DNA from: a virus
Virus genome (UHGV): UHGV-1616174
Reading direction: 5' to 3' (one strand)
DNA length: 12,393 nucleotides
Shown here: piece by piece, positions 11,706-12,100 of the stretch
How the letters are laid out: every line of letters starts with the position of its first letter
Position numbering within the stretch: position 1 is the first letter of the stretch
Position numbers and translations under genes: made by a program
The notes under the pieces: generated by a model
Told to the model about the DNA's origin: nothing
The model's database searches: none
What the model saw: the letters and a program-made list of their open reading frames with translations, nothing else

Positions 11706-11837
11706 TCACCCCACCAGTCCCGATAACGTCAGGACTCGCCAGGCGGTGGAAAAGAAAATGGCAACCAGCATGAGTGAAAATGAAATGCCGACAATTACAC
11801 AGAGGATCTTCGCCAGCGTTATGAGTTTGTCTGACAT
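11706..11837 (-). CDS. Small hydrophobic protein (43 aa) with a single predicted transmembrane helix; unknown function
   Basis: ATG at 11835..11837 is preceded by a strong RBS (AAGGGAGGA). Its stop TGA lies 8 nt upstream of the Rz ATG, suggesting translational coupling. Sequence [43 protein letters not shown]. The track ORF 11706..11927 has a longer, less plausible N-terminus. Confidence 0.5.
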
Positions 11838-11851
11838 GCTTAATCCTCCCT

Positions 11852-12034
11852 TCACGATTTCAACGCAATGACCAGTTTTGCCAGCCCATACAGCATCGGG
11901 GACACAGCAACACCGACCGCCACCCACTTAATGGCAAAAGCCAGTGCTCTGCTGATGTCATCAGTTACAGGCGCTTTCAGTTCAAGGCCGTTTTTCATAG
12001 TCAACCTCAACAGAATTCGTTTATACTTTTCCAT
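11852..12034 (-). CDS. Small protein (60 aa) with basic N-terminus and a C-terminal hydrophobic (probable transmembrane) segment; unknown function
   Basis: ATG at 12032..12034 is preceded by RBS AAGGGAGAA. Sequence MEKYKRILLRLTMKNGLELKAPVTDDISRALAFAIKWVAVGVAVSPMLYGLAKLVIALKS. Stop is 14 nt upstream of the 43-aa gene. The track's longer start (12067) would fall inside the upstream hairpin. Confidence 0.5.
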   Translation of the reverse strand: MEKYKRILLRLTMKNGLELKAPVTDDISRALAFAIKWVAVGVAVSPMLYGLAKLVIALKS

Positions 12035-12067
12035 GTTCTCCCTTGCCTTATCCAAGGTCAGAAACAC

Positions 12068-12100
12068 AAAACCCCGCTTGCAGCCAACAAACGGGGTTTT
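12068..12100. terminator. Hairpin (9 bp stem AAAACCCCG/CGGGGTTTT, 15-nt loop) with flanking T/A runs between the endolysin and the small membrane-protein genes; possible bidirectional terminator or RNA processing site
   Basis: Read directly from sequence at 12068..12076 and 12092..12100. Followed on plus by TACTTTTATT and on minus by GUGUUUC. The loop is long for a canonical terminator, hence moderate confidence. Confidence 0.45.

Follow-up and report, generated by a model that had tools for sequence, protein, structure and literature searches.

A hairpin and two small predicted membrane-protein genes in a mosaic slot between the endolysin and spanin genes of virus genome UHGV-1616174

The lambdoid lysis cassette has been thoroughly dissected and is usually given as holin, endolysin and spanin. 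In virus genome UHGV-1616174, an Escherichia coli prophage, of which one stretch of 12,393 nucleotides (nt), called the window here, was analysed, a hairpin and two small open reading frames (ORFs), ORF-A of 60 amino acids (aa) and ORF-B of 43 aa, lie between the endolysin gene and the Rz/Rz1 spanin genes. An earlier note on this DNA had described the hairpin and the two tightly packed ORFs, with strong ribosome-binding sites (RBSs), at this place; the description is confirmed, and only the strand had to be added. The finding is real and more general than that account. The genes of the window's lysis region are all on the minus strand, and positions are window coordinates. The features are listed below in the direction of the minus strand.

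12191..12393, minus strand: R21-type endolysin gene (PF00959-like, signal-anchor-release (SAR) type), 3' part, cut by the window end; stop TAA 12193..12191
12101..12190, minus strand: spacer of ~90 nt after the endolysin stop, common to all slot types
12068..12100, no strand assigned: hairpin of terminator-like shape, 5' boundary of the ORF-A module
12035..12067, minus strand: ORF-A 5' leader, with the RBS GGGAG and an overlapping predicted small stem
11852..12034, minus strand: ORF-A, 60 aa, ATG 12034, stop 11854..11852; PHROG 1115
11996..12008, minus strand: probable internal ORF-A start signal, GAGG 12008..12005, 6 nt, then the ATG of Met13 at 11998..11996
11706..11837, minus strand: ORF-B, 43 aa, ATG 11837, stop 11708..11706; PHROG 4906
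11231..11698, minus strand: Rz i-spanin gene, ATG 11698; Pfam PF03245, E = 7e-50; PHROG "Rz-like spanin"
11293..11478, minus strand: Rz1 o-spanin gene, embedded in Rz; Pfam PF06085, E = 3e-21; PHROG "Rz-like spanin"

The endolysin translation ends in ...ALACWGIDR* (that is, ...NIGPGKCFPSTFYRRINAGDRRGACEAIRWWIKDGGRDCRIRSNNCYGQVSRRDQESALACWGIDR*), and its full-length relative in L001, the closest relative, is annotated as a lysozyme and has an N-terminal SAR-like segment. ORF-A starts in the RBS context AAGGGAGAAC-ATG, with GGGAG 5 nt ahead of the ATG, and ORF-B in the context AGGGAGGATTAAGC-ATG, with AGGGAGGA 7 nt ahead. The longer GTG-start forms listed for the two ORFs (71 and 73 aa) have no RBS, and the ATG starts are common to the homologs. 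The spacer from ORF-A to ORF-B is 14 nt, and 7 nt (AAGAGAG) separate the ORF-B stop from the Rz ATG, for which 8 nt had been counted before, an essentially right value. Because the stop of ORF-B lies 7 nt before the Rz start, the two genes are probably translationally linked. The PHROG matches of Rz/Rz1 are 13 and 3198. The pair had been taken as built into the lysis operon and not free-standing, and this stands: the minus strand of 10900-12393, which includes the endolysin-Rz interval, showed no sigma-70-like site, both RBSs are strong, and ORF-B adjoins Rz.

As judged from the coding constraint on both, ORF-A and ORF-B are genuine genes. In 25 distinct intact DNA alleles of ORF-A from related loci, the ratio of nonsynonymous to synonymous change (dN/dS) was 0.17 in frame vs 0.81 and 2.4 in the other two frames, and the variable sites per codon position numbered 15/7/33. 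For ORF-B, 24 distinct intact DNA alleles from related loci gave a dN/dS of 0.50 in frame among close alleles vs 0.77 and 1.0 out of frame, and the 43 codons and the stop position were invariant in 24/24. Compared with its diverged homolog in L091, an unrelated phage (77% aa identity), ORF-B showed a synonymous difference (pS) of 0.485 and a nonsynonymous difference (pN) of 0.142, giving a dN/dS of 0.20. Conservation of the frames as coding, which had been raised as a check on the two ORFs, is thus seen as in-frame constraint on both. On this codon-position constraint and their occurrence in 1042 and 731 of 5426 complete E. coli genomes, respectively, the ORF pair is not a chance pattern. It is also highly improbable that the ORFs are translated spacers with functionless peptides, either leader peptides that bring ribosomes to Rz or decaying remnants. 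ORF-B does adjoin Rz and has a G-rich RBS-like run at its 3' end, its close alleles are under moderate constraint, and ~6% of its copies are truncated, all of which such spacers would share. They would be hard to reconcile with dN/dS values of 0.17 for ORF-A and 0.20 for ORF-B against its diverged homolog, reached with many synonymous changes, with the invariant length and stop position in the 24 ORF-B alleles, with amino-acid motifs kept across cassettes with different flanking genes, or with the translation of Rz in DLP12 and Qin, where no such leader is present.

ORF-B is truncated after codon 27 in L026, L027, L030, L032, L033, L036, L039 and L040, and it is also defective in L028 and L029. 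The prophages with a broken ORF-B keep ORF-A and Rz intact.

The ORF-A protein (MEKYKRILLRLTMKNGLELKAPVTDDISRALAFAIKWVAVGVAVSPMLYGLAKLVIALKS) consists of a basic N-terminal stretch of 29 aa followed by a single C-terminal predicted transmembrane helix. Its hydrophobic segment spans residues 38-56 (mean Kyte-Doolittle hydropathy 1.88), and AlphaFold2, run on the family alignment, gave a confident helix at 23-59 (predicted local distance difference test (pLDDT) score ~90), a break, and a low-confidence helix at 2-18. Eight basic residues stand ahead of the hydrophobic segment and one after it, a charge distribution that clearly predicts an N-in/C-out topology. The C-terminal flank is ALKS, with a predicted periplasmic tail of ~3 aa and no lipobox. 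ORF-B has a hydrophobic segment at 11-29 (mean hydropathy 2.87) within a single predicted transmembrane helix of residues 11-33, and AlphaFold2 on its family alignment gave one long helix at 2-38 (pLDDT 90). Hydropathy and the AlphaFold2 helices thus agree with the earlier reading of a 60-aa protein with a C-terminal hydrophobic segment and a 43-aa single-pass protein. N-in/C-out is predicted for ORF-B as well, from alleles with an uncharged C-terminal tail; for the window's allele, which is nearly charge-balanced with net +1 on each flank, the prediction is weak. The C-terminal flank of ORF-B has 10-14 residues, is uncharged or +1, and would leave a periplasmic tail of ~10 aa, with no lipobox. 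Kinship of ORF-B to the N-terminal transmembrane segment of Rz was considered and set aside, as 47 of 5000 shuffles reach the score, which is ordinary similarity between transmembrane segments.

At a coverage of at least 80%, the hairpin and ORF-A are present in 1042/5426 complete E. coli genomes and ORF-B in 731/5426, the latter a lower bound as to diverged alleles. Homologs of ORF-B occur in 276 phage records, including 933W, Min27, 24B, P13374 and Stx2 phage I. In 933W (AF125520) the homolog lies at 27438..27566 and is unannotated there, as in many deposited genomes of Shiga toxin (Stx) phages; in the phages just named, ORF-B stands behind ant, the antirepressor gene, and its end is 7 nt short of Rz. 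In the Sakai prophage Sp5 it is ECs_5707, added on re-annotation, directly before Rz. No known family could be assigned by eye before, and the searches leave it so: the only matches were to PHROG families of unknown function, phrog_1115 for ORF-A (E = 1.4e-42, residues 1-60) and phrog_4906 for ORF-B (E = 2.5e-27, residues 1-43). When A and B, the mini-genes C, X and Y49 of the same junction (introduced below) and the lipoprotein of phiP27-like cassettes were scanned against Pfam, NCBIfam and PADLOC, nothing significant came back. ORF-A had no Pfam match at E <= 1 and ORF-B only the sub-threshold DUF3930 (E = 0.17), and the PADLOC-DB defence models gave no match at E <= 1 for A, B, C, X and the lipoprotein. 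The protein homologs, all "hypothetical protein", come from Escherichia, Shigella and Salmonella. In a profile search with the A family against 1.84 billion cluster representatives, 17 members were found, all small proteins of the same family and no holins, while no locus was confirmed when genome contigs were scanned with the A alignment, probably as the species-representative genomes have no insert.

The endolysin-spanin junction is a mosaic slot with a pool of interchangeable mini-genes A, B, C, X and Y49, of which A and B are represented in the window by ORF-A and ORF-B. These mini-genes are carried by temperate phages of enterobacteria, where they lie between the endolysin gene and genes for outer-membrane disruption. 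The survey covered 195 locus records (the window and 194 fetched loci); some contigs were fetched twice, and the counts are inflated by duplicates. The slot contents were as follows.

A-B-Rz: ~120 locus records
X-B-Rz: ~18 locus records
Ant-B-Rz: 12 locus records
A'-Y49-C-Rz: 11 locus records
A-C-Rz: 4 locus records
A-B-A'-C-Rz: 3 locus records
X-B-A'-C-Rz: 1 locus record (L003)

Whether the insert varies among related prophages had been left to comparison, and the slot content does differ across the surveyed loci. The mini-gene C (MSAELIRAMAFAIRIVAIAVLVWAIRWW) is a short paralog of the A core (0/5000 shuffles reach the observed score), and X is weakly like A (36/5000 shuffles reach the score). 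At its 3' end, the gene adjoining Rz has a G-rich motif resembling an RBS, which reads ...GGTGGGGTGA for B, and ...RWW* for C as well as for the "Arww" variants. When 35 distinct spacers were aligned, among them that of the ant type from Stx phages (L002), the cassette types were seen to diverge directly after ...AAGTGAATAAA. In K-12 DLP12 and Qin, the endolysin gene passes straight to Rz, with stop and start overlapping, so the earlier statement that other cassettes go directly from R to Rz was verified for these two, relative to which ORF-A and ORF-B are an insertion. The ~90-nt spacer behind the endolysin is kept in every slot type, including ant, and is altogether absent from K-12 Qin and DLP12.

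Throughout the 195 records, the mini-genes lie between the endolysin and Rz/Rz1 or a lipoprotein of phiP27 type, with two exceptions. Diverged A-family genes, many of them ending in RWW, stand directly before the i-spanin gene in cassettes that are otherwise built, and the A-family cassettes as a whole include four endolysin Pfam families (PF00959, GH108+PG_binding_3, GH19 and Peptidase_M15_4), three holin sets (S21-type, Phage_holin_2_3 and Phage_holin_8+3_7) and two i-spanin families (PF03245 and DUF2514). In phiP27-like cassettes, A, B or C is found directly before a lipoprotein of 60-65 aa, which B overlaps in L091. This lipoprotein (phiP27 NC_003356 20673-20861, equal to L195 2495-2683; also in L087-L091, L099 and L115) is listed as the phiP27 o-spanin in the Young-lab spanin census (PMC6139136 Table S4). 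No Rz-like gene lies near it in the phiP27-like cassettes, and the proposed 64-aa phiP27 i-spanin ORF is absent from those loci. A DNA methyltransferase gene with a DPPY motif stands between B or an A-like gene and Rz in L025 (2837-3772), L037 and L111 (3122-4105), and its product has 311 aa in L025 and L037 and 327 aa in L111.

In the hairpin (12100..12068), a stem of 14 bp carries a 5-nt loop and is followed by a T-rich tail, with an A-run on the 5' side and a T-run on the 3' side. Its fold, -21.6 kcal/mol for 51 nt, beats 200/200 shuffles (z = -3.9 in a 101-nt context and z = -5.0 in a 51-nt context), and from its shape it could work as an intrinsic terminator in both directions. A Q-modified polymerase in a lambdoid late operon is expected to read through such a terminator. 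The element AAAACCCC...GGGGTTTT is found 30-55 nt upstream of every A-family gene examined, whatever gene precedes, and among the slot types the hairpin is common to the A and X types only. The base of the stem is conserved, and the inner stem differs in sequence and length yet stays paired. As the inner stems differ in this way, a single hairpin alignment gives limited covariation support; 12 variants were therefore folded one by one, giving -14 to -24 kcal/mol and z values between -2.9 and -5.5. By this co-occurrence, the hairpin belongs to the ORF-A module and appears to travel with A into unrelated cassettes. In an Rfam scan no family came above threshold, and the only match was a sub-threshold rimP leader at 12036-12124 on the plus strand (E = 0.063).

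A slot of this kind invites the explanation that its contents are cargo unrelated to lysis. The junction would then be a permissive landing site in the late operon, and A and B moron-like passengers, such as exclusion peptides or peptides that modulate the host membrane. The slot also carries ant and the DPPY DNA methyltransferase (311 aa in the shorter form), its content is highly mosaic, the hairpin and A act as a mobile cassette that is also present among baseplate-like genes in L114 and in a non-lysis setting in L112, and many functional lambdoid cassettes have neither A nor B. Expression in the lysogen, as is usual for morons and exclusion genes, is on the other hand not expected, because the coding strand has no promoter-like site and the hairpin lies upstream instead of downstream. 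Moreover, nearly all surveyed records, distant cassettes included, keep the genes directly before outer-membrane-disruption genes, and no PADLOC defence model matches. Cargo is thus a possible explanation, if on the whole an unlikely one.

ORF-A probably makes two products, one of 60 aa from M1 and one of 48 aa from M13. Two products are likely because M13 is conserved, the GAGG ahead of it is invariant, the surrounding 27 nt are free of synonymous change, and the upstream start varies and yet has an RBS. At least 90% of the ORF-A family members have kept Met13, and TGAGGTT precedes its ATG in 9/9 distinct sequence variants, the GAGG making use of AGG, a rare codon, at R10. Across the 27 nt that surround M13, no synonymous change is seen in loci otherwise diverged by a pS of ~0.4. 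The upstream start is ATG, GTG or TTG, in each case with its own RBS. Codons 1-22 are under protein-level constraint, with a dN/dS of 0.24 and changes mainly at third positions, and many gene callers report the 48-aa form. In the 5' leader, a stem CCUUG-N7-CAAGG overlaps the ORF-A RBS, and the minimum-free-energy fold pairs part of this RBS. The CCTTG...CAAGG pair is retained in divergent loci, where compensatory changes were absent, which leaves the structure a predicted one.

In two relatives, L086 and L093, the ancestral RBS and ATG serve an 8-codon leader ORF (MCREVYSL*) ~25 nt ahead of the GTG at which the A-family gene starts. The TGA of this ORF overlaps the GTG, an arrangement that suggests translational coupling of the leader ORF and the A-family gene.

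One further feature is found on the opposite strand of ORF-A.

11998..12027, plus strand: weak sigma-70-like match TAGTCA-18-TATACT, antisense to ORF-A, 9/12 positions, 1.4 such matches expected by chance in the region

Speculatively, this site could start a cis-antisense RNA of ~75 nt that ends at the hairpin. The -10 element is TATACT or TATAAT in all divergent loci, a conservation that is confounded with the conserved K-Y-K codons. Such an RNA would make room for a type-I-toxin-like module, in which A, perhaps with B, is a toxic membrane peptide blocked in the lysogen by the ~75-nt cis-antisense RNA; once late transcription became massive, this block would be overcome, and the peptide would contribute to depolarising or permeabilising the membrane. 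The start of the RNA would fall opposite the ORF-A ATG, and the RNA would be complementary to the ORF-A RBS and end at the hairpin, then TTTTTACTTTTATT on the plus strand. It is in keeping with such a module that the Tyr codon within the -10 element is always TAT, that the hairpin is always kept with A, that the 8-codon leader ORF overlapping the A start in some relatives recalls mok/hok, and that size and hydrophobicity fit type I toxins. A precedent is HokW in Sp5, a small membrane toxin that aids phage release (PMC8621323). Nevertheless, a module of this kind is decidedly unlikely here: the promoter match is weak (9/12, with 1.4 such sites expected by chance), the internal translation start and the conserved K-Y-K and L-T-M codons confound the conservation of the site, the toxin gene would have no promoter of its own, and no Rfam family came above threshold.

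Taking the locus as a whole, ORF-A and ORF-B may be late-expressed, dispensable inner-membrane modulators of the lysis programme, a reading to which we give about an even chance. As they have no promoter of their own, A and B would be transcribed only when late, Q-antiterminated transcription passes the hairpin. The two proteins would then accumulate in the inner membrane alongside holin, endolysin and spanin, where helix-helix contacts could affect the triggering time of the holin or the i-spanin step. That they are essential effectors of lysis is unlikely, and since phages without these genes lyse normally, any such role would be accessory. The constant neighbour is the outer-membrane step, which gives a slight edge to a spanin-related over a holin-related role, while the dual start and a marginal likeness of the A helix to the second transmembrane domain (TMD2) of the pinholin are suggestive of a holin-related one. 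In this last comparison, BLASTP aligned the A transmembrane segment to pinholin TMD2 with 7/16 identical residues (E = 0.004), and 4/5000 shuffles reach the Smith-Waterman score. A role specific to SAR endolysins, as for a releasin, is disfavoured, because soluble endolysins (GH108, GH19 and M15) accompany A and B too. ORF-A as a paralog of the pinholin was kept as a weak lead only, the similarity being marginal and without profile support.

The protein P0235, encoded on a 554-nt ENA contig, is a chimera of pinholin residues 1-36 and ORF-A residues 38-60, joined at W-[AV]-A-[IV]-G-V. A joint through a long shared DNA word was ruled out, as the longest common run is 8 nt, and the chimera may be a real deletion or an artefact.

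Several observations weigh against a modulating role in lysis. Lambda, the phage 21-type K-12 prophages and many others lyse without A or B, which would leave any lysis role accessory. The holins, endolysins and spanins that accompany A are unrelated to one another, which speaks against a specific protein partner, so that a single such partner is unlikely for the A family as a whole. The TMD2 likeness is marginal after ~10 comparisons and absent from the "Arww" variants, and the profile search returned no holins. Constraint on ORF-B among close alleles is only moderate (dN/dS 0.50), and ~10 of its ~160 copies (~6%) are truncated or frameshifted, as is expected for decaying prophages. A-like genes stand outside recognisable lysis cassettes, although only in L112 (non-lysis context) and L114 (between baseplate-like genes). 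Because the slot also takes ant, in Stx phages, and a DNA methyltransferase, genes without a plausible lysis role, the argument from position alone is weakened. Finally, literature searches by peptide, by Sakai locus tag and by gene position found nothing on either ORF, and neither a comparative paper on Stx phages (PMC8136144) nor the spanin census (PMC6139136) discusses ORF-A or ORF-B. The genes themselves are not new, being already annotated as "hypothetical proteins"; no description was found anywhere of the junction slot, the mobile unit of hairpin and A, the likely dual start, or B in the reference Stx phages.

A more far-reaching version of the modulator reading would make the hairpin with A, and in some cases B, a self-contained, horizontally mobile junction cassette for an unrecognised class of dual-start, single-helix lysis mini-proteins of the inner membrane, inserted immediately ahead of the outer-membrane-disruption genes in unrelated cassettes. 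These might act as an inner-membrane partner of or brake on the spanin step, including with the phiP27-type mini-lipoprotein without an Rz-like gene, or as an antiholin that mimics TMD2, and they might be silenced in the lysogen by a cis-antisense RNA ending at that bidirectional terminator. We regard this extended version as unlikely.

Comparison with known systems places the two proteins near several classes. In phage P2, the membrane protein LysA is non-essential and alters lysis timing modestly; its gene lies between that of endolysin K and those of the spanins, lysB/lysC. LysA is the closest positional analogue of A and B, being likewise a membrane protein encoded between an endolysin and an i-spanin gene, dispensable elsewhere and with an assumed role in timing; compared by description only, LysA is much larger and multi-spanning, whereas A and B have one helix each. 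Dual-start pairs of holin and antiholin are known from phage 21, with the S21 71/68 pinholin (PF04971), and from lambda, with S107/S105 and the sdi stem. They are the closest regulatory analogue, as ORF-A has two candidate in-frame starts with an RBS each and a predicted stem over the upstream one, and ORF-A weakly resembles pinholin TMD2 through a shared W-x-A-x-G-V-x-x-S. Unlike the pinholin, ORF-A has one transmembrane segment instead of two and no charged C-terminal cytoplasmic tail, and no PF04971 (Lysis_S) match was found for it. Unlike the dual-start holins, it lies downstream of the endolysin, has its starts 12 codons apart, and is also found with holins other than S21.

The releasin gp25 of phage Mu (DUF2730) is a protein of 99 aa with an N-out/C-in topology and a 73-aa acidic cytoplasmic domain (PMC9239132). 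Like A and B, it is small and bitopic, is encoded a few genes downstream of the endolysin, goes together with SAR and soluble endolysins, and is not a holin. In contrast, A is predicted to be N-in with a 29-aa basic cytoplasmic segment, the opposite charge distribution, and has no DUF2730 match. HokW promotes the release of Sp5 (PMC8621323), and Hok and the HokW-SokW pair share with A and B hydrophobic inner-membrane peptides of at most 60 aa and possibly an antisense RNA over the start of ORF-A. They differ in that A and B have no promoter of their own, lie inside a late operon, are coupled to Rz, and show no similarity to Hok. Lambdoid morons, such as bor and lom of lambda and those of HK97 and HK022, have a promoter-gene-terminator structure in the latter two phages. 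Morons resemble A and B in their accessory, mosaic distribution and apparent insertion between conserved neighbours, but A and B have no promoter, have the hairpin on the upstream side, and are in the same orientation as the lysis genes and coupled to them. In contrast to spanins, A and B have neither a long periplasmic domain nor the lipobox of an o-spanin, and genuine Rz/Rz1 follow at 11698..11231. The corynephage LysZ is a further membrane protein with a lysis role in the cassette (bioRxiv 10.1101/2025.06.24.661397), and gp25, LysZ and HokW show that extra membrane proteins encoded in such cassettes or close to them can be of importance to lysis. Taken together, A and B lack those features that define holins, spanins, releasins and morons and that could be tested, and they also lack the own promoter of type I toxins.

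About one fifth of complete E. coli genomes carry some part of this mini-gene set, and B is present in the reference Shiga-toxin phages 933W and Sakai Sp5, often unannotated. If lysis timing or the spanin step is tuned by the peptides, they would influence burst size as well as when and how much Shiga toxin is released, and a fourth, modular component would be added to the standard model of Gram-negative phage lysis. Even as unrelated cargo, the junction hot spot and the mobile cassette of hairpin and A would be useful for annotation and for small-protein studies.

Beyond Rz/Rz1, the window continues with terminase genes. The 300 nt from the Rz stop to the start of the terminase small subunit (10930-11230) hold no minus-strand ORF of more than 34 aa; at the corresponding place between Rz and the terminase genes, L001 has an HNH endonuclease gene and three small genes. 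Within the small-terminase-like gene on the minus strand (10078-10929) there are 12-nt tandem repeats, TTTGCGCA[C/G]TTT, at 10619-10643 and 10700-10769, in 2.1 and 3 copies, with a 24-nt period across 10700-10769. The repeats encode protein repeats of the SAQKNAQK type and could be a packaging-site-like feature.

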